Shown here: positions 3-32,805 of the stretch, one piece after another
Layout of the letters: each line of letters starts with the position of its first letter
Numbering within the stretch: position 1 is the stretch's first letter
IMG/VR virus record: IMGVR_UViG_3300042894_000686
Span: 1 to 33,684 of that record
DNA from: a virus
Lineage: Duplodnaviria; Caudoviricetes
Strand: one strand, 5' to 3'
DNA length: 33,684 nt
The notes under the pieces: model-generated
The model's input: the letters and a program-made list of their open reading frames with translations, nothing else
What the model was told of the DNA's origin: nothing
Database searches by the model: none
Position numbers and translations under genes: made by a program

Positions 3-674
3 CATGTAGTTAACCCATCTTTCGCATTGTGGCCTGGAATCCTTGACCAATGATCCAACATACAACAATGCATCCAATTTATATACATTTCGTACGGCCT
101 CATTTACAACACCATCATATTGTCCTAATGCATCACGTGATGATTGCAATGCAATACGTTTTAATACACCTTGTCTTTGCTCGGTTGTTGTCAATTGTTT
201 TGATATCGATTGTACGACATCGGTTAAACTCGATCCCTGGTTAACGGCAATAAACAATTCTTGTTTTAATGGATTTACCAATGATTGTTGTAATCCTTGA
301 CCTTCCATTGCCGTGATCACATTTTGAATGGCATTAGTTTTAAACGTATTGATAAAACTTTTTTTTAATTCAATACCGTTCAAATCTTTGTGAATTTCTT
401 GTTGTGCATTTGCCATTGCATCAAATCCGGTTAAATAATTTGCAACCATCTCTGAATATCCGGCACGTTTTAAAAATCGTTCCACGGCCGTTCTAAATGC
501 ACCAACACGTGCAATGTTCGCATCGGTTCTAATAATACGACCATTTGTTGTGCTGAATTTATTAATCCAATCAACAACTTGTTGAACAAATTTCGGTTCA
601 ACTTTGCCTAATGTTTTTTCAACATAGGCATTCGCTTTTTCAGTAATTTTAAACGGTTGATTTAAATCGGCCAT
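3..674 (-). CDS. Minor head morphogenesis protein (Mu gpF / SPP1 gp7-like), runs off the window start
   Basis: Not in the ORF track; translated by hand from ATG at 674 (MADLNQPFKITEKAN...LLYVGSLVKDSRPQCERWVNYM) and open to the edge. Has a gpF-type 'Y.G..D.RP.C' motif and lies directly downstream of the portal candidate. Confidence 0.75.
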   Translation of the reverse strand, partial: MADLNQPFKITEKANAYVEKTLGKVEPKFVQQVVDWINKFSTTNGRIIRTDANIARVGAFRTAVERFLKRAGYSEMVANYLTGFDAMANAQQEIHKDLNGIELKKSFINTFKTNAIQNVITAMEGQGLQQSLVNPLKQELFIAVNQGSSLTDVVQSISKQLTTTEQRQGVLKRIALQSSRDALGQYDGVVNEAVRNVYKLDALLYVGSLVKDSRPQCERWVNYM

Positions 675-676
675 AT

Positions 677-2428
677 TTACATATTATCATCATCCATATC
701 ATCAATATTGAATTGCTGATTGAAATCTATTTGTTCCGGAACCATTGTAATTTTTACGGCTTCAAATCTCGGTTGCAATATCTTATCAATTTCATTATTG
801 ATTGCCGTAAAATCATTTGTCATTATATCGAAATTATTTTCGTAATACAATGTCGTTGTTGCATCAAAAACAAATGTGGCCTTTATGGCATCCTCTTGTG
901 TTATCTGATTCGATGCAATCATTATATTTCGTTCCTCAACCGTGTACAAATAGATTGATGTGTACATTGCACAAATATCCGCTATTCTACGTGCAACCGG
1001 ATCAGATGCAAACCTTCGATCCATGTATGATCTGTATGCCTCGTATCGTATTGCGGCCGGTTGACCTTTTTGTGATTCGGCAAATTCTTGCATCAAATCG
1101 GTTTCGGTTTTTAAATCAAAACTGATTGGTGGATTCACAATGATATTTGATTCCAAATCTAAAAACACCAAACCCTGGATGATGTACAATATATCATGTA
1201 ATTTACCATACACATCATCGGATATTTTACCGACCTCGATGTATTCCGGTTCACGATCCATTTCCTTTGCAACACCGGATTGTGCCGCATTCAATGATCG
1301 GTTTATATTTAACACTTGTTCGGCCTTCATCAATGCCTCGGTTGCAACCGTTCGTGTTTCCTGGATGGTTGATACATCCGGTGAAAAATAACGAATTGGA
1401 TCAACTTGTTCTTTGTCGTTTCCAAATTTGTTTGTTGTTGGATTTATGTTGTATGCGGCCAATGGTGAAATGGACAATGTTTTACCGTGACCATGACATG
1501 AATTACACGAAATCGAATTATCATGATTAACCGGATCAATCAATCGGCCGGTACCATGACATGTATTACAATCAACACCTTCAACAAATTTGATCGGAAA
1601 ACATGTTGATAACATTACCGATTTATGTTGATTGTCATAAATTGCCGCATCATTTAAATAAGGTATTGCCGGACTAAAATCAGATTTATATACAACAAAT
1701 GCATTTCCATAATTGTCATACATAGGAACCGCACGACCCCCCATGGTGATCCATGGAACAATACCCATATTATGATTATATAAAACAGTAAACTCACTTT
1801 GTCCATCAATGCTTTTTACTTCTGCATAAAATTCATCAGTTACAATATGATACCACAATGGTTGTTCTAATGCAAATGTTGAATATTTTTTCTTATTTAT
1901 TCCTTTATATATTAACAATTTGTAATCCGGATCATTAAAAACTATTCGATCGGATTGGATTGGTTTCAATTCTATATCGACTCTTTGCGTTTCATCAATT
2001 ATACCATCACCAATCGGTGATACCAATAATACGGCATTCGGATCCAATACACGATATGGTACAAATAGATTAAAAAAATATTTTGTCAAATCAACATCAC
2101 CAAATGTTTTATCCTCAATGTATTGTTGCATTTCCAAATTGTCAAATCTGATCGAATGTTTTGCACTTGACAACAATCGATTCAATTCGGTAATTGCTTT
2201 TACCAATGGTGATTCGGTTTTTGGTTGATATGTTCGTTTTCTATATTGTAAAATCTGATCATCTTCATTTGGAAATGCCGTATCCAATGCCAATGGCACT
2301 TGACCATAAAAATGTGGTTTAATGGATTCGTATATTTTTTTCCATTCATTTTTAAATGGATGAACCGGTGGTGATAAAATACCAACGGCAATTTCATCCA
2401 TAAATTTTAAAAATTGTTCAACGTTCAT
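677..2428 (-). CDS. Portal protein with an inserted DnaJ-type CxxCxGxG zinc finger
   Basis: 583 aa, acidic C-terminus, SPP1-portal-like 'AAQSGVAKEMD' segment, immediately upstream of the gpF-like gene. Contains CNTCHGTG and CNSCHGHG. Confidence 0.72.
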   Translation of the reverse strand: MNVEQFLKFMDEIAVGILSPPVHPFKNEWKKIYESIKPHFYGQVPLALDTAFPNEDDQILQYRKRTYQPKTESPLVKAITELNRLLSSAKHSIRFDNLEMQQYIEDKTFGDVDLTKYFFNLFVPYRVLDPNAVLLVSPIGDGIIDETQRVDIELKPIQSDRIVFNDPDYKLLIYKGINKKKYSTFALEQPLWYHIVTDEFYAEVKSIDGQSEFTVLYNHNMGIVPWITMGGRAVPMYDNYGNAFVVYKSDFSPAIPYLNDAAIYDNQHKSVMLSTCFPIKFVEGVDCNTCHGTGRLIDPVNHDNSISCNSCHGHGKTLSISPLAAYNINPTTNKFGNDKEQVDPIRYFSPDVSTIQETRTVATEALMKAEQVLNINRSLNAAQSGVAKEMDREPEYIEVGKISDDVYGKLHDILYIIQGLVFLDLESNIIVNPPISFDLKTETDLMQEFAESQKGQPAAIRYEAYRSYMDRRFASDPVARRIADICAMYTSIYLYTVEERNIMIASNQITQEDAIKATFVFDATTTLYYENNFDIMTNDFTAINNEIDKILQPRFEAVKITMVPEQIDFNQQFNIDDMDDDNM

Positions 2429-2442
2429 TTTTTACTATTTTT

Positions 2443-2476
2443 AAAAAATAGGATGGTATATTTCAACCATCCTATT
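2443..2476 (-). terminator. Rho-independent terminator after the tail tube gene
   Basis: Perfect 11-bp stem AATAGGATGGT (2447-2457) / ACCATCCTATT (2466-2476) followed by a U-tract on the minus strand. Confidence 0.8.
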
Positions 2477-2500
2477 AATCACTAAAAACTATTATTAAAA

Positions 2501-16098: not shown

Positions 16099-16111
16099 AT
16101 AATTTTTTTTA

Positions 16112-16142
16112 TAAAGGTAAAAATAAAATAAAACGATTACAA
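16112..16142 (-). promoter_or_regulatory. Bacteroidota-type promoter for terS-terL
   Basis: TTG (16142-16140), 20-nt spacer, TACCTTTA (16119-16112), 13 nt upstream of ATG 16098. Confidence 0.5.
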
Positions 16143-16173
16143 TAAAAATGCAAAAAAACATAAAATATTCGTT

Positions 16174-16987: not shown

Positions 16988-17026
16988 AAAAAAACCGGTA
17001 TCAAATTAAGGTACCGGTTTTATTTT
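16988..17026. terminator. Bidirectional terminator between convergent genes
   Basis: AAAACCGGTA (16991-17000) / TACCGGTTTT (17012-17021) stem flanked by A and T tracts. Confidence 0.75.
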
Positions 17027-17422
17027 TTATAGTGCTAAAATTGAATAATTATCATATGATGTAACACATGCTATTTGATAGATCAGATGTGTTTCAAAAA
17101 ACGATTTTGGTGTATATGATGTCTCTGTTTCAATTTTATAAATAAGGCCTTCAAACGGCATATAATGAATCAGAAAACAATGTGTTTTGGTAAACATAAA
17201 CATCGGAATTTTAATGTCCTTATAAGTTAAAAAACTCATTGTGATGTTATCGAATTCACGTTGTGACAAATGTTTATAATGTGATATAAGGATCCAAACC
17301 GAATATTTGTCCGGAATCATTCGTTGGATGTCACATATTTGATATCCATTGATTCGATCTTTGAATTGTGATAGATCTAAGTAAGGAAATAAATCATTTA
17401 CTGATTTTACAACACAATTCAT
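17027..17422 (-). CDS. Hypothetical protein
   Basis: 131 aa, ATGA overlap with the amidase stop. Confidence 0.7.
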   Translation of the reverse strand: MNCVVKSVNDLFPYLDLSQFKDRINGYQICDIQRMIPDKYSVWILISHYKHLSQREFDNITMSFLTYKDIKIPMFMFTKTHCFLIHYMPFEGLIYKIETETSYTPKSFFETHLIYQIACVTSYDNYSILAL

Positions 17423-18072
17423 ATTACATTATTTTTAATAATATCAATCATTGATTTTACCACTTTTTGTCGAAATTCCGGTTTCATTAAAAGATCAGCA
17501 TTGTTTGGATTATCAAAAAAACCGATCTCAAAAAGTATTGCAGCCATATTTGTTGCCGTTGTGATTGTCAATGGATTGTCATTTACTAATTGTGATCTGC
17601 GTTTTGAACCATGTGCATCAAATACGTTTTGCATCGATAATGTTATTTTTTCTGCCAATTTTGCCGTTTCTGATCCTAATTTATAAACAAACGAGCAAAC
17701 ACCTTCGGCCGATGTTTGTGGTGCCGTACCAACGGCCGTTGCATTGGCATGAAATGAAAGAAACAATGATTTTGAATTATATTTTTGTTGTATTTCATTA
17801 CCGGTTTTTGGCCGATCATTCAATGGTGTATCCAAGTAAGGATGATATACCGGATGACATATATATCCGGCATCTTTAGCCTGGGACATAAATTCCAAAG
17901 CAAATTCACGATTGAATTTACCTTCATAAAACCAACCACCACCGTGATATGGTTTTCCATTTGTATGTAATGTTTTTTTGCCGATTGTCGGTGATGTTGT
18001 ATATAATCCGGTATTCGGATCAATTCCACCATGTCCGGCATCAATCAATAATAGTGTTTGTTTGATTTGCAT
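17419..18072 (-). CDS. N-acetylmuramoyl-L-alanine amidase (Amidase_3), probable endolysin
   Basis: IDAGHGG, YEGKFN, FLSFHANA and AILFEIGFFDNPND-like zinc/catalytic motifs. Start set at ATG 18072. Confidence 0.9.
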   Translation of the reverse strand: MQIKQTLLLIDAGHGGIDPNTGLYTTSPTIGKKTLHTNGKPYHGGGWFYEGKFNREFALEFMSQAKDAGYICHPVYHPYLDTPLNDRPKTGNEIQQKYNSKSLFLSFHANATAVGTAPQTSAEGVCSFVYKLGSETAKLAEKITLSMQNVFDAHGSKRRSQLVNDNPLTITTATNMAAILFEIGFFDNPNNADLLMKPEFRQKVVKSMIDIIKNNVI

Positions 18073-18073
18073 G

Positions 18074-18268
18074 TTATTCTGATTTAAATGTATTATTAAA
18101 ATAATCCATTGGAATAACATCGGTTAAACCTTCATGATAAGCGTTTTTGATCTGATCCATTTCCATTAATTTTGCCGTTGAACAAATGTTCATTTTTTCA
18201 TCATGATTCAAAGTATTCCAATCTGTTTTGTATAATTGTTCCTCCAACCATTCGACCGCAGTTTTCAT
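18074..18268 (-). CDS. Small phage protein, 'TAVEWL...AK.ME..QI..AY' type
   Basis: 64 aa, similar to 21512..21739, ATGA overlap. Confidence 0.75.
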   Translation of the reverse strand: MKTAVEWLEEQLYKTDWNTLNHDEKMNICSTAKLMEMDQIKNAYHEGLTDVIPMDYFNNTFKSE

Positions 18269-18720
18269 AAATCGTATTTTTGAAGATTATATAAATCTAT
18301 TATTTTACCGATTTCAATCCAATAATTTCCGGCACCATATCCTCGGCAATTATTAATCCAATACGATGCCGGTTTACCAATTGCATGATCATAATATTGA
18401 TTCAAAAAAATGGCATGATCGATATATGAATCAATTGAATTATCATATGCACGGTATGAATTATATGATTTTCCTGGCCAATTTTTATATGCCTTAATAC
18501 CAAAATGATTGTTTGATTTTTTGGCAACATTTGATCGACCACCACCGGATTCGGCAATGGCTTGTGCAATCTGTATTGATGCCGGTATTCCACATTCAAT
18601 TTGTATTTGATTTGCAATTGATATATGTTGATTGATATAATTTTTGTATGTATTATTAACCGGATTAAATGCCGTACATAATACGAATATCGGTATCAGT
18701 TTAATTTTAAAAAATTTCAT
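18265..18720 (-). CDS. GH73 glucosaminidase-domain protein, short and divergent
   Basis: GIPASIQIAQAIAESGGG, NNHFGIK, YRAY.N..DSY.DHA.FL. Signal-like N-terminus. YATD motif absent. Confidence 0.82.
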   Translation of the reverse strand: MKFFKIKLIPIFVLCTAFNPVNNTYKNYINQHISIANQIQIECGIPASIQIAQAIAESGGGRSNVAKKSNNHFGIKAYKNWPGKSYNSYRAYDNSIDSYIDHAIFLNQYYDHAIGKPASYWINNCRGYGAGNYWIEIGKIIDLYNLQKYDL

Positions 18721-18723
18721 AAT

Positions 18724-18972
18724 CTAATAAATTAAATCATTACAAAAAATTGGTGTTTTTTCACCTACATATGCGGATTCAATATTGAAATAATAATATT
18801 CAATTGCATCATCATATGACATATGAATCATCAATAATTGAATAATTTTTGATACTGAATAAATTAATTTTAATGAATTTTCTTCAAAACCGATTATTGC
18901 ATCATCAAAATCATTTGCTATTAAAAATAATTCATCCGGATATTTTTCAAATATTTTATTTATCATATTCAT
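18724..18972 (-). CDS. Conserved hypothetical phage protein
   Basis: 'A.DFDDAIIG...IYS..KII..L..M.YDDAIEYY.FNI..AYVGEKTPIF' pattern familiar from environmental phages. Confidence 0.78.
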   Translation of the reverse strand: MNMINKIFEKYPDELFLIANDFDDAIIGFEENSLKLIYSVSKIIQLLMIHMSYDDAIEYYYFNIESAYVGEKTPIFCNDLIY

Positions 18973-19606
18973 GTAAACGGTATTTTTTGATGATTTTAAT
19001 TAGTTTTTCCGGATATTTTTTGTCGGTTGCATAACCGCATTTTTTTAAACCATACGACCATTCAACATAATTTTTACCATATTTTTTCAATGATTTGTAT
19101 CGATCCGATGTCAATAATATTGAATGTTCACGATATGATTCTTTTGCTGAATTAAAAACTCGGAACATATCATCCGGATCATCATCATGGTAATTTACAC
19201 ATTTACCGGTATAATTTGATTTACATTTGATACCGAAATGATTGTTGTATTTACGTGATAATTCCGATTTACCAATGTTTGATTCGAGTAATCCTTGTGC
19301 CAATGTAATGGATGCCGGAATACCATATTTTTTCATTTCATTGATTGCAATTGATTTATATTTGTTAATATAATCATCAACGTTTTTTGGCAATTTTTGA
19401 ACGTTTATTGATTCAAATTTTGTCGGTATTATTGATACTGTTTTTGGTTCTTTATTGTACGGTTCAATTACTGATAAACATTTTGTTGTGTCAATATCAA
19501 TTGGTATTGAATGATATGATGGTGTTAATGGATCAACCGATCTTGGTTGACATAATACCCAAATGACAATTAAAAAAATTGCTGAATAAATGATGTTGTG
19601 TTTCAT
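18956..19606 (-). CDS. GH73 glucosaminidase (FlgJ-like) with N-terminal signal/anchor
   Basis: YGIPASITLAQGLLES, NNHFGIKC, FRVF.SAKESYREHS, GYATDKKY. Hydrophobic N-terminus. Confidence 0.9.
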   Translation of the reverse strand: MKHNIIYSAIFLIVIWVLCQPRSVDPLTPSYHSIPIDIDTTKCLSVIEPYNKEPKTVSIIPTKFESINVQKLPKNVDDYINKYKSIAINEMKKYGIPASITLAQGLLESNIGKSELSRKYNNHFGIKCKSNYTGKCVNYHDDDPDDMFRVFNSAKESYREHSILLTSDRYKSLKKYGKNYVEWSYGLKKCGYATDKKYPEKLIKIIKKYRLHEYDK

Positions 19607-19625
19607 GTTGTTGTTATTTAATGTT

Positions 19626-19664
19626 AAAAAAAATTGGCCGGAATAACAAAAATATCATCCGGCC
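19626..19664 (-). terminator. Putative hairpin / terminator
   Basis: GGCCGGA (19636-19642) / TCCGGCC (19658-19664) with a downstream U tract. The loop is long. Confidence 0.4.
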
Positions 19665-19671
19665 TGGATAA

Positions 19672-20148
19672 TTATAATTCGTAAAATCTTACAATTTCGG
19701 TTTTTACATTGGCATTAAATTCATCTTTACGGCATTGATGTATTGGTATTTCAATTGGTTTTCTTTTGTCAATTGATGATTGTATTTTTCTACGTGATAC
19801 ACCAAAAAATCTCATTGCAGACATTACCGAATCAAACAACGTGTATGTTTCATCATAAAAAACACATTTGATACGTTTGTTTGGTTTTGGTAATTTACCG
19901 TGTAATTTCATCATTTCACGTTGATTTTCGACATATTTTTTTACCGATTCCTCAGTAACTAAACGTGATACAACAATGTTTTTTAACTCGACAAAATCAC
20001 CGTTTTCATTTCTTACAAAAACATCCGGTTTTGCTTCAACGATTTTACCTAATTTTATTAATCCAATCAAACGTGTATTTGCATAATTTGGATTTTTTGG
20101 TTGTTTAACCTTAATTTTTTTTAATGCCTGGTCAAATGTTAGATACAT
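19672..20148 (-). CDS. Basic putative DNA-binding protein (C-terminal NUMOD1-like HTH)
   Basis: 'FDSVMSAMRFFGVSRRKIQSSI' resembles the NUMOD1 HTH. Lys/Arg-rich. Confidence 0.55.
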   Translation of the reverse strand: MYLTFDQALKKIKVKQPKNPNYANTRLIGLIKLGKIVEAKPDVFVRNENGDFVELKNIVVSRLVTEESVKKYVENQREMMKLHGKLPKPNKRIKCVFYDETYTLFDSVMSAMRFFGVSRRKIQSSIDKRKPIEIPIHQCRKDEFNANVKTEIVRFYEL

Positions 20149-20154
20149 AATATT

Positions 20155-21012
20155 TTATATTAGTTTATGTAATTTCATTGCACGTATCAAACGAGTTATA
20201 CCGATTCCGGCACCATAACGTGGAACAAAATCATTTTTTAGAAATTCATTCAATTCAGATATTACACGATCATAACCGAATAAATCAATTATTTTTTCGG
20301 AATATTTACCGTTTTCAATCGTGAAAAATGTTTTTCTCATTAAATTTTTATCACATGATCTTTGTGCTGATCCGATTGTTTCCTGGCCGTATAATAAAAC
20401 ATCAATTTTATTTGCAATGCCGTGATCATTACGTTCCATATTCCAAAATGGATTTGTACGTTCCGGAAAATATTGCAATGATATATTGTGACCGTATTTT
20501 TTGTACAATTCGGTTTCATGATCACCGGTAATAATATCGGTACCAAATTCCAAACATGCATCCTCATAAAAAATAATATAAGGATTTCCAAATCCTAAAA
20601 ATTGCAATAATTCAGATTCCAATTTTTGAAGATCAAAAATATCACCAAATGATTCAAATTCGAACATTGGAAATATTTTGCAATGCCTTCCGGATACCGG
20701 ATTTTTTTCATTACGATATGATGTTGATAAACAAAACCAACCATTTGCCAATTCGTTTTTATCTGAATTTAATAACTCATGTTCCAACCACATTTGACCC
20801 GTTTGTGGTAACGGCCAATTTTTATTTTCATAGTTGAATGTACCAATATTAAATGGATCCTCACATGCGGCCAAAATCGACAATCTGTTTTGTGTATGTA
20901 CTTCCAAAAATCCTTTGTTGGTGAAAAATTCACGTAATTTTTGTGTCACATATGTAAAATCGTAATTGTCGATATGTGGATAAAATTCAGATGATAAACT
21001 GTGTTTTTTCAT
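20155..21012 (-). CDS. Stand-alone class IIb aminoacyl-tRNA synthetase catalytic domain (Asp/Asn/Lys type), no anticodon-binding domain
   Basis: Motif 1 LREFFTNKGFLEVHT, motif 2 SYRNE...RH..FPMFEFE, ETIGSAQR, motif 3 PRYGAGIGITRLI. Only 285 aa. Confidence 0.88.
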   Translation of the reverse strand: MKKHSLSSEFYPHIDNYDFTYVTQKLREFFTNKGFLEVHTQNRLSILAACEDPFNIGTFNYENKNWPLPQTGQMWLEHELLNSDKNELANGWFCLSTSYRNEKNPVSGRHCKIFPMFEFESFGDIFDLQKLESELLQFLGFGNPYIIFYEDACLEFGTDIITGDHETELYKKYGHNISLQYFPERTNPFWNMERNDHGIANKIDVLLYGQETIGSAQRSCDKNLMRKTFFTIENGKYSEKIIDLFGYDRVISELNEFLKNDFVPRYGAGIGITRLIRAMKLHKLI

Positions 21013-21028
21013 TATATTTTAATAGTTT

Positions 21029-21053
21029 AAAAAAAACCACCGTTTCCGGTGGC
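21029..21053 (-). terminator. Rho-independent terminator-like hairpin upstream of the aaRS-like gene
   Basis: On the minus strand GCCACCG-GAAA-CGGTGGT followed by a T tract. GNRA loop. Confidence 0.7.
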
Positions 21054-21103
21054 TAAAATGGAATAACAACAACAATGTAAATATAAAATTAAAATATTAT
21101 ATT

Positions 21104-21487
21104 TTATTCATGTTCGACATTTTTTTCTATTTCCTCATAAACTAATTTTGATGATAGATCAGTAACGGCATTTAAAAAATCCGGTAATTTATGATCCGGA
21201 ATTGCACATGCCAACATGAATAATTTTTGCATCATAACGACATGATCATAAACAATGTATTCGGTTTCGGTTTTTGTCAATGCCTTGTTGTCGGTTAATC
21301 TGAATGATTTTGAAATGATATTATTGGCAAATGTTTTAATATTGCTAAATCGATTTCTTGTATTAAATTTTATTTCCGGATCATCCAAAATATTTTCAGA
21401 TGCATAATCTAATGCATAAAGAGAACAAAGAATCAACCATTGATTTATTTTATGATCTTTTTTTTTGATAGAAAATTCGTGTTTCAT
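21104..21487 (-). CDS. Hypothetical protein
   Basis: 127 aa helical ORF in the operon. Confidence 0.7.
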   Translation of the reverse strand: MKHEFSIKKKDHKINQWLILCSLYALDYASENILDDPEIKFNTRNRFSNIKTFANNIISKSFRLTDNKALTKTETEYIVYDHVVMMQKLFMLACAIPDHKLPDFLNAVTDLSSKLVYEEIEKNVEHE

Positions 21488-21511
21488 GTTTAAAATTATT
21501 GAGTAAAAAAA

Positions 21512-21739
21512 TTATTTTATAGGATAAAAATGTTTGTAATTTATTGTATAATAAAAATCAGCATCTTGATCTGAAATACAATTTATTCCAGATTTATAAG
21601 CATCAATTATCTGTTGTTTTTCCATTTCTTTGGCTTGTTGTATTAGTGAATCTAATTGTTGCCATTCTATTTTACAAAATTCTGGGTCTCCATATGATTC
21701 TAATTCTTTTCCTAACCATTCTAATGCAGTTTGTTTCAT
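21512..21739 (-). CDS. Small phage protein, 'QTALEWL...AKEMEKQQIIDAY' type
   Basis: 75 aa, similar to 18074..18268. Confidence 0.75.
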   Translation of the reverse strand: MKQTALEWLGKELESYGDPEFCKIEWQQLDSLIQQAKEMEKQQIIDAYKSGINCISDQDADFYYTINYKHFYPIK

Positions 21740-21743
21740 GTTT

Positions 21744-24380
21744 TTACTTTTTAAAAATTTCTGTTAATGGAATCAATATTGCCGGTGAATAATTACCGAC
21801 TGAATAATATGTATTATTTTTTCTGAATGCACCTTTTATCCTGGATAATACTTGTGCATAATTTTTTGCCCATGGTGTACCTCTTAATGATGCATTTACA
21901 AATGTTGATGTTGTACTAATTGCAAGATTTTCTCCTTCAACTTTGATTCCAATACGTTTTAAATGTGGATCAACATATGTAAATTTCAATGGTTCTGCTA
22001 AAATCGAATTATCAACAATTTCAATCAATTCACCAATTGTACGTGTATGCATTCCATATTCGGTTTCAACCTTTGTTTGAACTGTTAAAATATGTTGCAA
22101 ACAACGTACTTCATCAGATTGTACATTAATACCTTGTTCATTGGAAAAATCAAATTTTTTGACAATTTGTATTGCATGTTCTAATGTTGGACAATCATCT
22201 GATGCCAAATGATATGCACCACCAATTAATGCACCTAATTGATCACCCATTGCACGATTTGACAATGTTGTCGTTATTGCTTGTGTAAAAATGCCAATTG
22301 TTTTTAACAAATTAGGTAATAAATTGATAATCCTGGCATGAAATCGTTTTACATAATCATCGGATGCATAATCATTATATTCTAATGAAACGGATTCAAA
22401 TTCCTCATTTGTAATACCACCTTTTTTTAATTCAAGATTTGTAATCCTTCGAACATCGGAACCTAATGTCGCTTGTGGCACAATAGAACAAAATGCAAAA
22501 CATGATCTTATTGTGTATGTTTTGGCACCATTACCGGTACCTTTTGCAATCAATCCACCATCCGATGATGATGCCGCTCTCATTAATTGCAATACACGTT
22601 GTATTTGATTTTGTGCAATTTCGTTTTCACCTTCGGCTTCATCAAATAAAACATTCAATGCATCATTTCCTAAATATTCACGTAATCCGGCCTCGGATGT
22701 GTTACCTTGTACCGATACTGAAATACCTTTTGTAAAACGTTGCAATACTTCCTTATTAATCCATGATTTTCCGGATCCGGCACCACCGGTAATCCAAATA
22801 TGTGGCCTCCAATTTAAAACACCACAAACCGGTGCCAATGCCAACCATCCGGCTAATAATGTGGCATCGATTTCACGTTCCCATGATAATGATTGTAAGG
22901 TATCTAATAGCTTTTTGGATTCATGTTTTTTTAACGGATTTTTAAAATTCAGATTCAATGGTTCACCCAATTCATAAATATATTCCGTGTCAATTTCACC
23001 TAAATTATAACTCTGTGAATCCACAATTAAACAATCACCATTATGTATCACAATACGATTTCTATCAATCCATGCACCACGGCCTCGAATTTTGTTTAAA
23101 TTAAAATAACCACGTGAATTGCCCAAATCAATCAAATATTGAACGGCCGAATCAATATTAAAACTATTTGATTTTTCTTTTGGAAATGATATATTCCAAA
23201 ATTCCATTGGAGCCAATGCAAAAAGATTATTTTTTGACATTTTGGCCGGTGATAATTTTATAATTGTTCGTGATCCGATTGAGTAAAAATGAAATGATTG
23301 TACACCATCATCATTTTTCATAAATCCTAATGGCATAAAATGTTTTGAATAATGCATCGTTTCACGTTGTTTCGTGACAACCGGATTTAATGTTACATTA
23401 CTCGGTTTTTGTTGTTTCCAATCATTCCAAATTCCAAAATCACTTACATATCGTTTATAAGGATATTCAATACAATTTGTTTTGACATCAACTCCCAATG
23501 TCGATGTGGCATAATTGTATGCATCGGATTCGGATATACCCATCCGGTTTAAAACAATTGAAAACATTGTCAAAAAATTATGATAATTTCCTGGTAAACA
23601 TGAACCGGTTTTATTTTCGGCATATTTCAATGCAATTTTGTATGGATCCGAATCAGTATTTGAAATCGTGATAATTTCATTAGACATTTGTTTTTTATCC
23701 GATGCAATCAAATACATTTCCAATGCCTTAATTGGAATTTCTTTGGCATCGTAATTGACAAAAATGTTATCATCATAACTTAAATATCTCAATCGTTTAA
23801 TATCCTTGGATGATCCGGATTTGATTTTAAATTCGTTTTCCAAATTTTCACTAAAAAAATCAAAATATGCCGTGTGCAATTTAGATTTATAATCATCAAT
23901 TTTTAATTGCAATCGATTGATTAAATAATCAGATACATCAGAAAAATCATTCGGAATATCAACCAAAATATTGATCCACATCGATCCATTATATTTTCCG
24001 GATATTGAATGTGCTGATGCCTCAATGTATGGTATTTTGTTTGATTTTATCAAATCATAAAATTTATCCAAATCATGTTTTGGATTTTGATCAATGTCGA
24101 TATTAATCCGGCCGGTATGCAAAACATATTGTTGATTTTCGATATTTGTTGACCTATCAAAACATCCGGAAAAAACCACGGCCGGTAATGATTTTTTATC
24201 GTGTTGATATGTTGATTTATCATATCCATTAAAATCGGCCTGGATGCCGGTAATATGTTTTTGTTGGATGTTTTCTGTTATTTTTTTTAACTCCAATTCT
24301 GTTATTTTGACATATACATCCATTATGTCAATTTGAATCGGTTTATTTTCAAAAATATTTGAATAATAATTGCAATACAT
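21744..24380 (-). CDS. Primase-helicase fusion (BT4734/VirE-N-like primase plus C-terminal P-loop helicase)
   Basis: N-terminal KKSLPAVVFSGCF...HTGRINIDID...SISG...KDIKRLRYLSYD. C-terminal Walker A GGAGSGKS and Walker B VLFDEAE. Confidence 0.82.
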   Translation of the reverse strand: MYCNYYSNIFENKPIQIDIMDVYVKITELELKKITENIQQKHITGIQADFNGYDKSTYQHDKKSLPAVVFSGCFDRSTNIENQQYVLHTGRINIDIDQNPKHDLDKFYDLIKSNKIPYIEASAHSISGKYNGSMWINILVDIPNDFSDVSDYLINRLQLKIDDYKSKLHTAYFDFFSENLENEFKIKSGSSKDIKRLRYLSYDDNIFVNYDAKEIPIKALEMYLIASDKKQMSNEIITISNTDSDPYKIALKYAENKTGSCLPGNYHNFLTMFSIVLNRMGISESDAYNYATSTLGVDVKTNCIEYPYKRYVSDFGIWNDWKQQKPSNVTLNPVVTKQRETMHYSKHFMPLGFMKNDDGVQSFHFYSIGSRTIIKLSPAKMSKNNLFALAPMEFWNISFPKEKSNSFNIDSAVQYLIDLGNSRGYFNLNKIRGRGAWIDRNRIVIHNGDCLIVDSQSYNLGEIDTEYIYELGEPLNLNFKNPLKKHESKKLLDTLQSLSWEREIDATLLAGWLALAPVCGVLNWRPHIWITGGAGSGKSWINKEVLQRFTKGISVSVQGNTSEAGLREYLGNDALNVLFDEAEGENEIAQNQIQRVLQLMRAASSSDGGLIAKGTGNGAKTYTIRSCFAFCSIVPQATLGSDVRRITNLELKKGGITNEEFESVSLEYNDYASDDYVKRFHARIINLLPNLLKTIGIFTQAITTTLSNRAMGDQLGALIGGAYHLASDDCPTLEHAIQIVKKFDFSNEQGINVQSDEVRCLQHILTVQTKVETEYGMHTRTIGELIEIVDNSILAEPLKFTYVDPHLKRIGIKVEGENLAISTTSTFVNASLRGTPWAKNYAQVLSRIKGAFRKNNTYYSVGNYSPAILIPLTEIFKK

Positions 24381-24420
24381 ATTGTTGTTGTTTTTGTTGT
24401 GGATTCCAAAAATAAAATAA

Positions 24421-24807
24421 TTATTTTATATTATCAAACAAATTATTTAAATCATCAACCGATCTTAAAACTGATGCAATACCACCAAATCGATTTACTG
24501 TTTCAATAAAATTTGTTTGTTCTTTGCTGATTTTACCGGCTTGTGTTTTTATTTCCAATGCAGTAAATATGGCAATTTTTTTACCAACCATTTCCGGTGT
24601 AATATCGATTGATGTCCAACCAATAAGATCAGATGATCCGACACATAATCCGGAATGTAATGGTCGTGCATTTTCAATAATAATGGCACCGGATTTTGTT
24701 CGGCCGGTTTTACCGATCCAACCGGTTCCAACATTATTTCGGAACATGCGAACATTTTCCGGTAAATTCAATCGAATTTCGTTTTGTATGTTTAACTCTT
24801 TATTCAT
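24421..24807 (-). CDS. VRR-NUC domain nuclease
   Basis: E..IQ.EIR, FRNNVG, GSSDLIG, ALEIKT..GK.SKEQ.NFI. Start set at ATG 24807. Confidence 0.88.
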   Translation of the reverse strand: MNKELNIQNEIRLNLPENVRMFRNNVGTGWIGKTGRTKSGAIIIENARPLHSGLCVGSSDLIGWTSIDITPEMVGKKIAIFTALEIKTQAGKISKEQTNFIETVNRFGGIASVLRSVDDLNNLFDNIK

Positions 24808-25033
24808 TATCAATTGCAACTTTTACCTCATTCCAATACATATAAAAATCAAATAAATCATTTTGATTAACATATCTAAACTGATATTTTAATATATTAT
24901 CAACCATTGTATGTGTACATTCTTTTGCTATATGTGTACATAATATTTCATTGCCACATTCGGAATCGGATTTCATTAAAATGATTCTAAAATCATCAAT
25001 TATTGTTTTTGCCATTTGTATTGGATCAGACAT
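24800..25033 (-). CDS. Hypothetical protein
   Basis: 77 aa, ends 'YWNEVK.AI', tiled in the operon. Confidence 0.72.
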   Translation of the reverse strand: MSDPIQMAKTIIDDFRIILMKSDSECGNEILCTHIAKECTHTMVDNILKYQFRYVNQNDLFDFYMYWNEVKVAIDNE

Positions 25034-25036
25034 TAT

Positions 25037-25486
25037 TTATTTTTTTAATAATAGTGAAATAACTTTTTTATGTGCATCGATGTTGTTTTCAAAATATGTA
25101 TTTGAAATTAACGAATCGTGTATCATTACACCATGCCGTTCAATATGATAAGACCATCCTCGTTTTGGATGATTTACCAATTCGACATAATATTTTTTTC
25201 CGGATACAACAATCATGTTGTGATATGTATATTGGTTTTCGATGCCGATATGATACAATGCATATTCAACATTGCCACATTTTAATTTTGGCCGATTGCA
25301 AGTAAAATTTGATGAAAAAATCGACAAATTTTTGTTTTCATTTTCATCCTGGTTGTTTTTTGATTCCATTAGTTTTTGTAATGCAATATCGTATTCATTA
25401 TAAATTCCAACATAAAAATATTGATTATTTTTTCTAAATTGTACGATATATTTATTTAATCGGTTGCTGAATGTTATTCCTTGCAT
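25037..25486 (-). CDS. Protein with N-terminal AP2-like DNA-binding domain
   Basis: GITF....KYIVQFRKN...YVGIY.EYDIA fits the AP2 three-strand-plus-helix pattern. Confidence 0.55.
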   Translation of the reverse strand: MQGITFSNRLNKYIVQFRKNNQYFYVGIYNEYDIALQKLMESKNNQDENENKNLSIFSSNFTCNRPKLKCGNVEYALYHIGIENQYTYHNMIVVSGKKYYVELVNHPKRGWSYHIERHGVMIHDSLISNTYFENNIDAHKKVISLLLKK

Positions 25487-25487
25487 T

Positions 25488-26543
25488 TTATTTCATATAG
25501 TTTAAAATGTGACAAATAATATCAATTGTCCAACCGTTTCCAATCATCTTATACCTTTGTGAATCTGAAACATGATTCGTGTAATTGTCTTTTACTGTTT
25601 GTAATCTTTCCCATTCAATTGGTGTTAATCTTCTGATATACTCATTATCATAATTTTCATAATTATCACCATGATCACATGTTTCGCACATAAAACCAAA
25701 ATTCATACATGTATAAAATCCATATTTACAATTTGCAATAAATACCATATTATCTGTTGGACAAATACGTGCATTTGCCCTCAAACAATTTGCTTTATCA
25801 TAAATATCTTTTACTTTAAATGCAAAACCGGTTCCTTTATCATTATGTCTTATTGCATGTCTTTCAAATGCTTCTGTTAATTTTAAACTGATATTATATT
25901 TTTTATCAACATCATTTTGTAAAATATCTTTTAATAATAATTTTTTATCTTTTGGTTGTTTAATAACACTAAACATATCATTAAATAATCCTCCTGGTTG
26001 CATTCCAATATTTGTCCAATAAATACGTTTTCTATTTTGTGCTGATACTAATGATGAATTCATATGAATACCATTAACATCAATAGCCTTACTTAAAACC
26101 TTTTCCCACTTTTCACCCATTTCTACATTTTCAAGTAAAAAAAATATATTTGGATTTTTAACTCTTAACTCATTTAATAATCTCATATATTCCCAAAACA
26201 AATAAGATTCACCTTCAAATTCATAACCTTCAGATTTTAATTCTAAATAATGTTTTAAGGTATATATTTCAATATTATCTTTTGTTGACATTGCTTTACG
26301 TTTACCTACAAATGAAAATGATTGACATGGTGATCCACCTAATAATAAATCTATTTTTGGCAAATCATATCCATTAACGTTAACAACTGATCCTAATTGA
26401 ATAGTATTTGGATAATTAGCCATAGTAACTTTTATAGCATATTTATCAATTTCAGATGCAAAATAATTATCAACATTAAATTCACATCTTTCCAATGCTT
26501 GTTGACCACATGACATTCCGTCAAATAAACTTAATACATTCAT
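25488..26543 (-). CDS. DNA cytosine-C5 methyltransferase
   Basis: Motif I LSLFDG, motif IV GSPCQ, motif VI ENV, motif VIII QNRKRIYW, motifs IX-X RRLTP.E.ERLQ...YKMIGNGW. Confidence 0.93.
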   Translation of the reverse strand: MNVLSLFDGMSCGQQALERCEFNVDNYFASEIDKYAIKVTMANYPNTIQLGSVVNVNGYDLPKIDLLLGGSPCQSFSFVGKRKAMSTKDNIEIYTLKHYLELKSEGYEFEGESYLFWEYMRLLNELRVKNPNIFFLLENVEMGEKWEKVLSKAIDVNGIHMNSSLVSAQNRKRIYWTNIGMQPGGLFNDMFSVIKQPKDKKLLLKDILQNDVDKKYNISLKLTEAFERHAIRHNDKGTGFAFKVKDIYDKANCLRANARICPTDNMVFIANCKYGFYTCMNFGFMCETCDHGDNYENYDNEYIRRLTPIEWERLQTVKDNYTNHVSDSQRYKMIGNGWTIDIICHILNYMK

Positions 26544-26546
26544 TAT

Positions 26547-27191
26547 TTAAAATAGTTTTTGTTGTGATACATGATTTTTAATTCTTTTAATTGCTGAATC
26601 ATAATATTCCTTATCCAATTCACATGCAGTCAATTCAAATCCATAATCATGACATGCAATTGCAATTGATCCGGATCCTAAATGTGTATCCAAAATTTTA
26701 TCACCTTGTTTAGCATATTTGTCTAAAATCCATTTATATAATAATATTGGTTTTTGTGTTGGATGTTGTGTTCCGCCATCAACAATTAATTGATTTCTAT
26801 TTATTATTTTTCTACGCAAAGCAATTTCAAATGATGTAAATGCTAATTCGCCATCACTCATTGTCAAATCTTGTCCTTTATCCCAAAATATCCAACCCAT
26901 TGAAGATGGCAAATATTGAGTAAAATAATTTGCACCCCAAATTATTTGATTTTTACTTACTCTAAAAAGTTGATCAAAATATTCTTTTTTTGGAATTTCA
27001 TTATCCCATCCTTTATTTTTAAAATATTTTCTTTTATGTTTTGGATTTTTAGTAATAATTTGTCTTTGTCCACTTCTATTTATTCCATATGGTGGATCAA
27101 CAATTGCCAAATCAAAATATTTATCCGGATAACGTGACATTAATTCCATGTTGTCCTCGTTTGTTATAGTTATTTTTTCTGTTACATTCAT
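26547..27191 (-). CDS. DNA amino-methyltransferase (N6-adenine or N4-cytosine), beta class
   Basis: DPPY near the N-terminus, HPTQKP, LDTHLGSGS near the C-terminus. Confidence 0.92.
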   Translation of the reverse strand: MNVTEKITITNEDNMELMSRYPDKYFDLAIVDPPYGINRSGQRQIITKNPKHKRKYFKNKGWDNEIPKKEYFDQLFRVSKNQIIWGANYFTQYLPSSMGWIFWDKGQDLTMSDGELAFTSFEIALRRKIINRNQLIVDGGTQHPTQKPILLYKWILDKYAKQGDKILDTHLGSGSIAIACHDYGFELTACELDKEYYDSAIKRIKNHVSQQKLF

Positions 27192-28543
27192 TATTTTCTG
27201 TTTTTAAATACCATCATTGCCCATCCTGGTTTATATCCTCTATTACGTTCTATTTTTAATAATTCATCCATTGTTCGTGCTTTGCCTATTTCCATTCGTT
27301 TTTGTTTTTTTACGATTCCGATTTCAACCAATTCACCATCTGTTTTTTCAATTACACGTTCTTTTTGTTCAACCTCGGTACCACATAATGGACAAATATT
27401 TTTATGCTGAAATGTATAAAAACACGATTTACATGTTTTAATTAAAATATTTTTTTCACCGGATTTCCTTTTACTTTTTTTAACGGCATCCAACGACCAT
27501 TCACGATCATCACATGGATGTCCATGTTTCAATGTATTACCTACATGATCCAAAACAATTGCAAATTCTTTACCTTCAAACGGCCTTAATCCACGGCCTA
27601 TTTGTTGCAAATATAATGATTCTGATATTGTAGGCCTCAATAACATAACACATCCAACGGCCGGAATATCGGTTCCCTCGGATATTAAATCACATGATGT
27701 GATTACATTAATTTTACCGGTATATAAATCATTCAATATTTTATCAATTTCCAATTGTTTCATTCCACCATGAACCGATTTTGCAATTATTCCGGAATTA
27801 CAAAATTCTAATGAAACATGTTCGGCATGTTTTACAGATACACAAAACACTATTCCTGGTAATCCATTACACATCTTTTTATAATGTGATACGACATCAC
27901 CGGTTATTTTTGGCCGATTCACGGCATTTTCTAATTGATTTCGATTATAATCACCACCGGTAATTTTAACCTGGCTTAAATCGATATTTGTCGGTGGAAC
28001 ATAAATCCTCGGTGATACCAAATATTTATTATCAATCAAATTATTAATCGATGATCCGATTATCATATCATCAAACATATCAGATAAACCAACACCATCC
28101 GTTCTGCATGGTGTTGCCGTAACTCCCAAAACTTTAGCATCCGGATATGCATTTATAATCTTTTTGTATGTTGATGCCGTTGCATGGTGGCATTCATCAA
28201 TAATAATTAAATTTGGACAAAATTTGTCCAATCGATTTACCATTGTTCCAATTTTTGCAATTTGACAATTATACGTATAATTTGCACCATATCCGGCACC
28301 AATCAAACCATGTCGAACTCCAAATTGTGTCAATGTTTTTGATGTCTGTTTAAATAATGAATCACGATGCACCAATATCAATACATTATTATTTTTCTGT
28401 ATTGTGGCATGTGCAATGTAACTAAAAATAATCGTTTTACCACCACCGGTTGGTAATACTAAAATCGGTGATTTATAGCCATTTTTGTATGATTCACGTA
28501 TTTTATAAATGGCATCTTTTTGATAATCTCTTAAAACAATCAT
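27191..28543 (-). CDS. SF2 DEAD/DEAH-box helicase with C-terminal zinc finger
   Basis: LRDYQ, PTGGGKT, DECHH, TATP, SEGTDIP, QQIGRGLR, CKSC...CPLC. Start set at ATG 28543. Confidence 0.93.
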   Translation of the reverse strand: MIVLRDYQKDAIYKIRESYKNGYKSPILVLPTGGGKTIIFSYIAHATIQKNNNVLILVHRDSLFKQTSKTLTQFGVRHGLIGAGYGANYTYNCQIAKIGTMVNRLDKFCPNLIIIDECHHATASTYKKIINAYPDAKVLGVTATPCRTDGVGLSDMFDDMIIGSSINNLIDNKYLVSPRIYVPPTNIDLSQVKITGGDYNRNQLENAVNRPKITGDVVSHYKKMCNGLPGIVFCVSVKHAEHVSLEFCNSGIIAKSVHGGMKQLEIDKILNDLYTGKINVITSCDLISEGTDIPAVGCVMLLRPTISESLYLQQIGRGLRPFEGKEFAIVLDHVGNTLKHGHPCDDREWSLDAVKKSKRKSGEKNILIKTCKSCFYTFQHKNICPLCGTEVEQKERVIEKTDGELVEIGIVKKQKRMEIGKARTMDELLKIERNRGYKPGWAMMVFKNRK

Positions 28544-28560
28544 ATATTTTTTTGTTGTTA

Positions 28561-28594
28561 TTTGCACAAATATAAAATAATACTTTTATATTTG
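28561..28594. promoter_or_regulatory. Overlapping divergent Bacteroidota-type promoters
   Basis: Plus strand: TTTG (28561-28564) and TATATTTG (28587-28594). Minus strand: TATATTTG (28574-28567) upstream of the helicase. Confidence 0.6.
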
Positions 28595-28625
28595 CATCAT
28601 TATTTAATTAAAATTACACAACAAA

Positions 28626-29117
28626 ATGGAAAAAACACATTGGAGAAAATTAAAAGATACCAATTTTCTCGGATCCTGGGACATCGTAAACAATGAATTG
28701 ATTTTGACAATTAAATCAATTATTACTGAAAACGTACAATCACCGGATGGTAAAACCGAACAATTGCCGGTTATGCATTTTATAGAAAATTATAAACCTA
28801 TGATTTTAAATGCAACCAATTTTAAAAACATTTCAAAGGCTTTAAATTCAAATTTTATTGAGGATTGGATCAATAAAAAAATATCAATTTATGTAACACC
28901 GGTAAAGGCCTTTGGACAAATTACCGATGCATTACGTATTAAACCGAATGCACCAAAAACAGAAAAACCGGTATTGACAATTGATCATCCGAAATATCCG
29001 GATGTTGTTGAAAAAATCAAATCCGGTGAAACAACCATTGAAACGGTAAAACAATATTTTGATTTGCATCCGGCCGTTATTGAGGCCATTAATATTTTAA
29101 CCAAAAAATCCAAATAA
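28626..29117 (+). CDS. Conserved phage protein, putative ssDNA-binding or annealing partner of the exonuclease
   Basis: 'THWRKL...FLGSWD...LTIK...KPMILNATN...IEDW..KKI.IY...DALRI' pattern, directly upstream of the YqaJ gene. Confidence 0.55.
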   Translation: MEKTHWRKLKDTNFLGSWDIVNNELILTIKSIITENVQSPDGKTEQLPVMHFIENYKPMILNATNFKNISKALNSNFIEDWINKKISIYVTPVKAFGQITDALRIKPNAPKTEKPVLTIDHPKYPDVVEKIKSGETTIETVKQYFDLHPAVIEAINILTKKSK

Positions 29118-29119
29118 TT

Positions 29120-29710
29120 ATGCCAAAGATAGGATGTATTACACCATCACAATTCAAAAAAGTTATGACAACATCACGTGGTGGAACCGGATTCGGCCAA
29201 ACTGCATTGACTTATGCCGATGAAATTGTATTGGATATTATCGGTGTTGAACGTGATCAGATTATTGCACCGGCATTAACTCATGGTATCGAAAACGAAT
29301 CACTTGCCGTTGATAGATATCAAGAGGATACATTGAATACTGTAACAATTGTTGATGAACCGATTCAACATCCGGATTATGATTTTATATGTGGAACACC
29401 GGATGGTTTGATTGGATCCGATGGTATTGTTGAAATTAAATGTCCATTTAACTCGGTTAATCACCTGGCAAATTTACGGTGGCAATTTAATCCGGATGAT
29501 ACACAAATTTCGGATTATTGGTGGCAAATTCAAGGATATTTGTGGATCACCAATCGACAATGGTGTGATTTTGTTTCATATGATCCACGATTTCCATATG
29601 ACAAACAAATATCAATTCAACGTGTAAAACGTGATCAATCTGAAATTGACAAATTATCTGAAAAATGTATGTTATTTTGGAACCTGGTTCAATTAAGATT
29701 GCCAAAATAA
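29120..29710 (+). CDS. YqaJ / lambda-exonuclease family protein
   Basis: G.IT.SQF, HGIENE..A, TPDGL, VEIKCP, YWWQIQG.LW.T...CDFVSYDPR. Confidence 0.92.
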   Translation: MPKIGCITPSQFKKVMTTSRGGTGFGQTALTYADEIVLDIIGVERDQIIAPALTHGIENESLAVDRYQEDTLNTVTIVDEPIQHPDYDFICGTPDGLIGSDGIVEIKCPFNSVNHLANLRWQFNPDDTQISDYWWQIQGYLWITNRQWCDFVSYDPRFPYDKQISIQRVKRDQSEIDKLSEKCMLFWNLVQLRLPK

Positions 29711-29771: not shown

Positions 29772-29800
29772 AAAAAAACCACCGTATAAAATACGATGGT
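29772..29800 (-). terminator. Terminator after the holin
   Basis: Minus strand ACCATCGTAT-TTT-ATACGGTGGT followed by a T tract. Confidence 0.7.
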
Positions 29801-29827
29801 CAACATAAAACACAACAATAAAAATAA

Positions 29828-30962: not shown

Positions 30963-30965
30963 AAT

Positions 30966-31751
30966 TTATCGGCCTAATGCCGTATTATAAGTATTAACAA
31001 TATTATAAAAATTCAATGCCTCGTTATCGTTTAACCCTTCACCAACGGATGCAAAACTAAATGTTTTTGCCAAATATGCACTCATTGTATTATTAAAATT
31101 CTTTTGTCCTAATACCGGAATTGTTGCCGTTGATCTTGCAACTGATGCCGTTGTATTTGTTATAATTGCTGATCCATTTTTATATAATTTTCTGCTATTT
31201 GATGCCGTTCTCGATGCACAATAAAAACCACTTGAATCGGTAACAGATGTAAGTAACGTACTTGAATTATCATTAATTTGGTATTGTGTTTGATTTGATG
31301 CATTTCTCGTTATTACTCTCAATCCGGCATTCAATGAACCATCAACAATACCCATTTCGGCATTAGCATTTTGACTGTTTGTTTTACTCCAAAATGATAT
31401 ATGTGTACTATTTAAAAGTAAATTTGTACTCGGTTGTATATATGTTTCACCATATCCATTTGTACCATTACCAACAATACCGTTTGATGTATGTGTTACA
31501 CCACCATTCCAAATAATTCGAAATGCACCATTTGTATCCAATGGATTTTTCAAATTCCATTTATGAAATGATGCCGTACCACCAACAAATGGATATAATG
31601 CATACATTTTTGTCCATAAATTATTGGATTTTAAACTAACAACCAATTGATTTACGGCATTCTTTTGTCCTGGATCAGACAAACCACTTGCAGTAAAAAA
31701 TGCTTGTGCATCAGCATCAAAATATGTAAATTGATATGGATTGATTATCAT
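30966..31751 (-). CDS. Putative virion appendage protein with ConA/LamG-like beta sandwich
   Basis: DADAQAFF.A.G..D...AVN.LV..LK...LW.KM.A.YPFVGG N-terminus, GNGTNGYG.T, 'KLYKNG', T/S/N-rich. Confidence 0.65.
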   Translation of the reverse strand: MIINPYQFTYFDADAQAFFTASGLSDPGQKNAVNQLVVSLKSNNLWTKMYALYPFVGGTASFHKWNLKNPLDTNGAFRIIWNGGVTHTSNGIVGNGTNGYGETYIQPSTNLLLNSTHISFWSKTNSQNANAEMGIVDGSLNAGLRVITRNASNQTQYQINDNSSTLLTSVTDSSGFYCASRTASNSRKLYKNGSAIITNTTASVARSTATIPVLGQKNFNNTMSAYLAKTFSFASVGEGLNDNEALNFYNIVNTYNTALGR

Positions 31752-31752
31752 A

Positions 31753-32805
31753 TTATCTATATCCTATTAAAGTAATTTTTAAACCTTTTGCAGTACCATC
31801 GCCAATTTGATCAATGTCAATTGTAATTTCACTATCATCGGCCAATGATGAATCCGAAATTACTGCCGGTGTCAATGCCGTTTTTGATGTTTTTTCTGTA
31901 TTATCAATTGTCAATTTTGTTGATAGAATTGATGTTCCATTTTCATTGATATCAACCGTAAAAATTGATCCGGATGTTTGTGCCGTTGTTAATGATGCAC
32001 GAACTTCAGTCAATGTGAATGCACATGGTGTTCTAAATGTTACCTTTGATGAACCGGTTGTCAATGATGTTGTTTCATCACTTGCGGCCAATTGGATTTC
32101 AATTGGATTAATAAAAAATTTAATTGCCCAAATTGCACTTCCGGTACTCGCATCATTACAAACATATGTATTTCCATTATCCAATGACCATAAACTTCCA
32201 ATTTGATAACCTTTTGTATTATCATCGGTTGATGTTGGAACATTGTTGAAATTATATAAACTTTGTCTGATTAAATTGCCACTACTGCCCATAACATATA
32301 AAACACCACCTTCCCATTTTAACTCATAGCCAAGACCACAGATTTGTGCAATACCATTATTTCCGCCAAGACCGGCATCAATGGTTCCTTTTTTTAGTCT
32401 TGAATTATTATCAAATAATAAACCATATGTTGTATCAAATACAATATCATTTGATCCGGAATTATTACCAACAATTAAAACTTGACTTAAATTTTGAGAT
32501 CCACCACCACCGGATGTTAACTCAAAAAAAAAATCCGTTGCTAACAACTGTGATAAATCTAAACAATTACCAACAAACGGTATGGATGCACCTGGTAATA
32601 TTTGTGTATCAACTACCAATGCCGGATCAAAATATTCAACCGATCCATTATCCATAATAACTTTTACAATACCGTTTTCATTACATTCAATTTTAATTAT
32701 GTCACTTGACAATGATTTTACAAAATCACCGGTGTCATTATTATATATGAAAACATTGCCATTTAATTCCTTGACAATACTGATCGGAAATGGAAAACAT
32801 GTCAT
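31753..32805 (-). CDS. Modular tail fibre-like structural protein
   Basis: N-terminal ~94 aa domain, GGGG linker, 'QNLSQVL.VGN' and 'PTSTDD.TKGY.IGSLW' fibre-type segments, C-terminal 'ASDETT.LTTG..KVTFR.P...IDIDQIG.GTAKGLK' domain. Confidence 0.68.
   Translation of the reverse strand: MTCFPFPISIVKELNGNVFIYNNDTGDFVKSLSSDIIKIECNENGIVKVIMDNGSVEYFDPALVVDTQILPGASIPFVGNCLDLSQLLATDFFFELTSGGGGSQNLSQVLIVGNNSGSNDIVFDTTYGLLFDNNSRLKKGTIDAGLGGNNGIAQICGLGYELKWEGGVLYVMGSSGNLIRQSLYNFNNVPTSTDDNTKGYQIGSLWSLDNGNTYVCNDASTGSAIWAIKFFINPIEIQLAASDETTSLTTGSSKVTFRTPCAFTLTEVRASLTTAQTSGSIFTVDINENGTSILSTKLTIDNTEKTSKTALTPAVISDSSLADDSEITIDIDQIGDGTAKGLKITLIGYR

Follow-up and report, generated by a model that had tools for sequence, protein, structure and literature searches.

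The 33,684-nucleotide (nt) window analysed here is IMG/VR record IMGVR_UViG_3300042894_000686, a virus of the class Caudoviricetes, and probably represents a whole genome; its two outer ends share five letters and would resemble the two arms of one hairpin. At least half of the sampled genome words are present in six lake-water runs, one of which may be its source. The gene content is that of a tailed phage, with a terminase, a portal-like protein, tail proteins, endolysins, a primase-helicase (21744..24380, minus strand; a predicted N-terminal AEP-like (BT4734-like) domain with a helical bundle and a C-terminal ATPase), an SF2 helicase (27191..28567, minus), a YqaJ exonuclease, an SSB and two methyltransferases, one of the C5 cytosine type (25488..26543, minus) and one of the N6/N4 type (26547..27191, minus). 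The subject of this study is an array of the pentamer CCTGG (33..32595, plus strand), which has 51 evenly spaced copies and none reversed; on the minus strand, the main coding strand, it reads CCAGG. Both are forms of CCWGG, the Dcm word.

An earlier, sequence-only reading of the window had claimed about 51 plus-strand copies of CCTGG, with CCAGG and CAGG both missing from that strand, a mean spacing of about 0.66 kb with a largest gap of about 1.56 kb, and a polarity that is kept in plus-strand genes and not accounted for by codon usage. Exact counting gave 51, 0 and 0, all the coordinates it had listed were correct, and its other figures agree with the measurements given below. Every one of the 51 copies of CCTG lies inside CCTGG. 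As had been noticed, the only free four-letter words (21588..21685) are a CCAG at 21588 and a single extra CTGG at 21682 (52 in total), both within the small gene 21512-21739. When near-identical contigs are added, the CCTGG:CCAGG ratio becomes 60:0 over 38.3 kb and 63:0 over 41.4 kb. CCTGG is the top over-represented pentamer relative to a maximal Markov model (z 14), and the 60 sites have no flanking consensus.

The enrichment is approximately five-fold over synonymous-codon shuffles (300 rounds; 36 minus-strand and 7 plus-strand genes). The coding strand of the minus-strand genes carries 43 CCAGG versus 8.8 in shuffles (maximum 15 in 300), in all three frames, and that of the plus-strand genes 4 CCTGG versus 0.6. 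Direction is independent of gene strand (Fisher P 3e-7), all five plus-gene copies matching the genome strand. Among the places where the protein permits the word, minus-strand genes realise CCAGG in 49 of 144 and CCTGG in 0 of 188, and plus-strand genes CCTGG in 5 of 13 and CCAGG in 0 of 8; for CCTGG the difference between 5/13 and 0/188 gives P 5e-7. Glutamine between C and G is encoded by CAG in 20 of 21 cases, versus 19 of 300 where no G follows, and Pro-Gly, which can be written only as CCNGG, uses CCAGG in 15 of 15 pairs, making up 15 of the 60 sites. One plus-gene copy (16790..16794) is found on the coding strand of the SSB-like gene (16698-16985, plus), by way of a rare CTG codon, and two more (29464 and 29683) in the plus-strand YqaJ exonuclease gene. 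Another (28675..28679) lies in the plus-strand gene 28626-29117 as TCC TGG; the related loci L141 and L424 are without it at the same place, and it was likely gained in this lineage. The 29683 copy is missing in the same two relatives.

The one-sidedness itself has to be read with care. The count of 51:0 is real, but the zero taken alone is weak evidence, since the shuffles expect the reversed word merely 2.3 times in minus-strand genes (about two to three times overall), AG and CT are depleted genome-wide, and 25 pentamers are similarly one-sided, with at least 15 copies versus at most one of the reverse complement. Nearly all of these contain CT or CCC, words with CT or CCC being avoided on the coding strand. 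The reversed word looks purged only when compared to sister phages of the same composition (63:0 versus 13:5, P 3e-4).

The gaps between CCTGG copies have a mean of 651 nt and a largest value of 1,562 nt, which is not exceeded in the 41.4 kb either. The regularity check proposed by the sequence-only reading revealed a spacing more even than random (coefficient of variation (CV) about 0.64, P 0.00035). CCTGG is the most evenly spaced of the 126 pentamers having 40-65 copies, and it stays so in comparison to sites redrawn among the places where synonymous codons allow the word (P 0.0006). Very short and very long gaps are both under-represented, with 2 gaps below 100 nt (8.4 expected) and none above 1,600 nt (4.8 expected). 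CCGG and GATC are unevenly spaced in this genome, and CCGG is enriched 3.4-fold. The CCTGG array is a real, strong feature.

The words that surround the site are avoided on both strands. End-mismatch neighbours of CCAGG/CCTGG are nearly missing (2 copies in minus-strand genes), CCAG/CTGG and CAGG/CCTG are almost absent outside the word, and CCCGG/CCGGG, that is, CCSGG, counts zero. This loss of sub-words may represent the traces of separate 4-base restriction targets. Among 80 other phage loci, fetched by their N6/N4 methyltransferase, five lack any CCAG/CTGG and four lack CAGG/CCTG outside CCWGG. Word avoidance on the plus strand is strong also in general, with an observed/expected ratio of 0.21 for AG and 0.45 for CT and seven copies of GGG. 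CTAG, GCGC, CGCG, GGNCC and CCSGG are all at zero in this genome, an avoidance common to the sisters. In the minus-strand genes, ATCTGA is found 26 times versus 3.1 in shuffles (8-fold) despite the avoidance of CT, and CGGCCG 20 times versus 1.2.

Natural sister phages serve as controls, including one with a single flipped site. Out of 79 overlapping AT-rich phage loci with at least 10 CCWGG, nine are one-sided and eight of these are this phage; the ninth is an 11:1 fragment, the near-complete relatives of which have 39:15 and 32:25. Sisters at 91-94% nt identity have a pooled forward:reversed ratio of 13:5 and lose or flip sites at roughly the background rate. In L108 (94% identity, same AG/CT signature) the ratio is 6:3, two reversed sites being one silent base from this genome, and the three reversed sites shrink the largest gap from 1,664 to 995 nt (P 0.003, the test having been chosen after the data were seen). 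L424 (91%) has 6:2, a forward gap of 2.4 kb and 3 of the 8 sites within its 91%-identical blocks; its flipped site corresponds to the Pro-Gly site at 27855..27859 (plus) in the helicase gene, where CCAGG on the coding strand is CCTGG. L158 has 1:0.

The primase of L141 is 79% identical (71% in the N-terminal 320 residues). The 15.5 kb of L141 contain four CCAGG, which all lie in a single exchanged block, the one holding the SF2 helicase, where identity is unusually high (87%), and no other word in L141 is polar in both gene directions. G003 (primase 53%) has CCWGG at 40:32, enriched 2- to 3-fold in both directions. A block at approximately 16990..29710 (17.0-29.7 kb) is inverted relative to L141 and G003; CCTGG polarity is nevertheless continuous through it and across both of its ends. 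In the unrelated L229 family, the density of CCWGG declines together with primase identity to L229, from about 2 per kb at 98% to about 0 at 65%. In G003 (L102-L104) two other words, GGTTG (28:1; 14 copies in plus-strand and 11 in minus-strand genes) and CGGTG (29:0), keep their polarity whatever the gene direction, are unevenly spaced, and may be another candidate co-oriented restriction site.

Even spacing of CCWGG pooled over directions is also found in the unrelated phages G275 (CV 0.53, P 0.0005), G276 (0.45, 0.0007) and G277 (0.64, 0.017), and in G005 (0.46, 0.015). With 13 genome groups combined (one P value per near-identical pair, genomes with fewer than eight sites left out), pooled evenness has P 2e-4, and P 0.007 without the strongest group. 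CCGG and GATC are evenly spaced as well in G005, G009 and G010. Separate spacing of each strand was considered: same-direction pairs numbered 49 versus 70 expected (4 sequences), yet this was not upheld under label permutation. Strand-separate spacing was not significant in G003, L229, L213 and L108, and reached P<0.05 in 1 of 24 further tests, all with small numbers; the gap filling in L108 speaks for the opposite. As sisters mix directions, L424 has flipped a site, reversed sites fill gaps in L108, and unrelated phages are even regardless of direction, the polarity would seem to be a recent filter in one lineage and the spacing a property of direction-blind CCWGG. A mirror pattern was seen in G009, G010 and G011 (L191-L197), where CCWGG occurs 0-1 times and CCGG nearly only within CCSGG; these genomes have 25-29 GATC, even in G009 and G010, and GATC is at zero in G008, G012, G013, G015 and G017.

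The reading that we favour, and to which we give about an even chance, is that CCWGG is maintained through methylation and restriction by the host, and that a defence dependent on inverted pairs has removed one direction. In a first, direction-blind layer, acting also on sisters and unrelated phages, the host would restrict CCAG and CAGG, and CCWGG would be spared because Dcm-type methylation overlaps it; as CCSGG is missing too, all Pro-Gly pairs take the form CCWGG. In a second layer, confined to this lineage, reversed copies would be counter-selected by an enzyme that recognises CCAGG or its core and depends on inverted pairs. Such an enzyme could be of type III, type ISP or MANTIS-like, cutting between oppositely facing asymmetric sites. 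Two origins of the spacing fit the gap data: two-site enzymes may cut pairs that lie close together, or some minimum density may be of use. Candidate drivers for the gain of extra sites and for their spacing are an advantage of carrying methylated sites, a bias in repair, or the removal of close pairs by two-site enzymes. Copies of an asymmetric word confined to one strand, whichever way the genes run (63:0), are what co-oriented restriction sites require, and the mixing of directions in close relatives (L108 6:3, L424 6:2) is T3-like. Co-orientation as an evasion of an enzyme needing inverted sites had been among the proposals of the sequence-only reading; it fits the comparative data best, and by itself does not explain enrichment and spacing.

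The precedents share parts of the pattern. In T7 all 36 EcoP15 sites point one way and the phage is resistant, and in T3 directions are mixed and the phage is restricted (PMC3874151); the likeness is an asymmetric word all one-way in one phage and mixed in a close relative. Here, however, the word is one form of CCWGG, five-fold enriched against codon preference and even, with sub-words purged on both strands. For MANTIS (Gao_RL), one-strand depletion and sometimes one-strand enrichment in virulent phages, and weaker restriction of direct repeats, are reported (10.64898/2026.09.23.753747); its sites are 6 bp long, in Pseudomonas, with no spacing described in the available part of that report, whereas the word here has five letters and is evenly spaced. 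The type ISP enzymes LlaGI and LlaBIII need head-to-head sites, and head-to-tail pairs are nicked (PMC4666363), so that an enzyme of this kind, hypothetical here, could add a cost to co-oriented sites too. Two-site looping enzymes include EcoRII (CCWGG), HpaII (CCGG) and Sau3AI (GATC) (PMC1474071), and their sites are the three words that are evenly spaced in relatives. EcoRII is reported in the same source, as far as its available part goes, to be insensitive to site direction, and escape from it would be unexpected at the density found here, 1.5 per kb.

Several observations weigh against this combination of methylation-spared sites and an inverted-pair defence. No host, enzyme or methylation was identified for it. 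Free CCAG and CAGG would be permitted under a strict type III rule as long as they were co-oriented, yet they are missing, which calls for a second system. Restriction leaves the gain of sites unexplained, as in the choice of CAG in 20/21 versus 19/300 cases. The realisation rate is the same in plus (5/13) and minus genes (49/144), and this equal density speaks for a genuine advantage of the sites. Restriction offers none, and priming and a methyl mark therefore stay alive as explanations. CCWGG is uneven in G022 (CV 0.95), G013 (1.03) and G007 (0.99), the pooled gap in L424 reaches 1,985 nt, the sister evidence comprises 18 sites in 16.4 kb, and for the 36 EcoP15 sites of T7 the available part of the source mentions no even spacing (PMC3874151).

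Two other causes were rejected. The phage methyltransferases do not account for the array, as the G003-type C5 family occurs in genomes with no CCWGG, and a contig of the strain in run X7 skips both genes and keeps four sites in the 1.8 kb checked. Very-short-patch repair as the sole cause of gain fails because the depletion of CCAAG seen here has no counterpart for CTTGG in L229/L230, and because several gains relative to L141 are A-to-C transversions. The methyltransferase genes (25488-27191) are accessory, the X7 contig skipping both and the X11 contig the C5 gene.

A bolder version, put forward tentatively, is that the phage builds an oriented map of CCAGG sites spaced by at most about 1.5 kb, in which each site would be functional, either as a methylated 'self' beacon for a host scanner with a direction or as a priming site confined to the sole context that methylation protects, and that the use of direction switches between sister lineages.

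Priming was the first proposal of the sequence-only reading: CCTGG would be the lagging-strand template start of the primase-helicase (21744..24380), the candidate reader of the word, during one-way replication with Okazaki-like spacing, the other direction being merely unselected. The supporting argument from the CTG preference of Escherichia coli DnaG does not apply, as the primase is, on its predicted structure, AEP-like rather than DnaG-like. Its N-terminal 320 residues have a confidently predicted fold (predicted local distance difference test (pLDDT) score 91.8), and the seven best structural matches, RepB' and S-2L PrimPol among them, all have the AEP fold, with middling Z of 5.2-6.7. 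The BT4734-like_N match is weak in this primase and above cut-off in three of five homologues; a sequence search of the PDB gave no matches, and Foldseek with the full-length protein returned weak rows only. The AEP primase of NrS-1 reads the template sites GTG(G)/TTTGGTTA, its helical bundle being the site-reading part (PMC8718748), and since AEP enzymes can read template words, priming is mechanistically possible. The two cases share an encoded AEP-like primase-helicase and a short oriented word; they differ in that the word of this phage does not track primase relatedness.

Inside the genome priming fits spacing and enrichment. The sites are even, no gap exceeds 1,562 nt in 41.4 kb, and plus-strand genes hold them as densely as minus-strand genes although rare codons are needed; the primase combines a predicted AEP-like fold and a helical bundle, and chance would supply the reversed word only about two to three times. 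It fails three comparative predictions: L141, with a 79%-identical primase, has no array; among the sisters at 91-94%, L424 retains three of eight sites, flips one and has the 2.4-kb forward gap; and in L108 gaps are filled by reversed sites. The word does not follow the primase in relatives. Moreover, strand-separate spacing is mostly not significant, and the loss of sub-words on both strands is left without explanation. On balance we consider priming unlikely. In a variant, a short priming word such as CCTG would have been squeezed into CCWGG by restriction; CCTG/CAGG is indeed enriched in relatives, but it is so in a bacterial chromosome as well.

A single host system might instead suffice, if methylated CCAGG were a 'self' mark read one-way by a scanning helicase-nuclease and the phage gathered marks, turned towards the scanner, at a minimum density. 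This would account jointly for gain, spacing and polarity, the word is of methyltransferase type, and CCGG is likewise enriched 3.4-fold; reversed sites, however, appear to count in L108, and no such mechanism was found in the literature searched. The idea is a doubtful one. Class 2 DISARM is said to mark CCWGG, and methylated phage reportedly did not escape it.

That the word is a Chi-like signal, or one for packaging or ejection, used by a motor that enters at one end, appears very unlikely, and for the Chi/KOPS proposal of the sequence-only reading no support was found, the host not being identified. Phages LLS (20:3) and MD8 (32:0) do carry Chi arrays that are enriched and polar, but these are end-clustered octamers in phages described, in the available part of the report, as without recombination genes (PMC12315714), whereas here sites are uniform and a YqaJ exonuclease and SSB are present. 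The sisters mix directions, and CCWGG showed no leading-strand skew (z 1.0) in 400 kb sampled from G028, a complete Bacteroidota chromosome not known to belong to the host. In that chromosome (G028:C2; L312-L331) TTGCAGG/GCAGG are the top leading-strand-skewed words and CTWGG/CCWAG is strongly depleted, possibly a Chi-like word and a signature of Dcm repair, respectively.

That codon usage and general AG/CT avoidance make the pattern without selection on the word, as the AG and CT ratios and the 25 one-sided pentamers might suggest, is hardly credible, being largely refuted for enrichment (43 versus 8.8, all three frames), direction (P 3e-7 and 5e-7) and even spacing.

T7 and MANTIS already provide examples of one-strand bias of restriction sites, produced there by loss; in this phage, sites are gained and spaced as well. 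A polar or evenly spaced CCWGG array was not described in the literature searched, mostly main texts outside subscription journals. If the favoured reading is true, unknown asymmetric motifs read by the defences of uncultured lake hosts, which are probably Bacteroidota, could be predicted from phage genomes. An evenly spaced, polar word in a phage should not be taken for a priming site as a matter of course. That several lake phages space CCWGG, CCGG and GATC evenly is a pattern of its own, and one that can be tested.

Three features suggest a host among the Bacteroidota: the BT4734-like primase domain, the C5 methyltransferase, which is nearest to those of Bacteroides phages, and the single terminase relative found among genome contigs, in a contig of a Bacteroidetes metagenome-assembled genome. 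A signature screen of 251 Bacteroidota genomes, 15 of them sampled, gave no host match (best r 0.66). A class II tRNA-synthetase-like protein (phrog_29758) is encoded at 20155-21012 (minus) and is present in L141 and G003 too. The region at about 16100-16470 is a repeat or indel region, with approximately 300 extra bases in L016 and reads cut at 16391-16466. Three consecutive cell-wall hydrolases, one amidase and two glucosaminidases, are encoded at 17419-19606 (minus).

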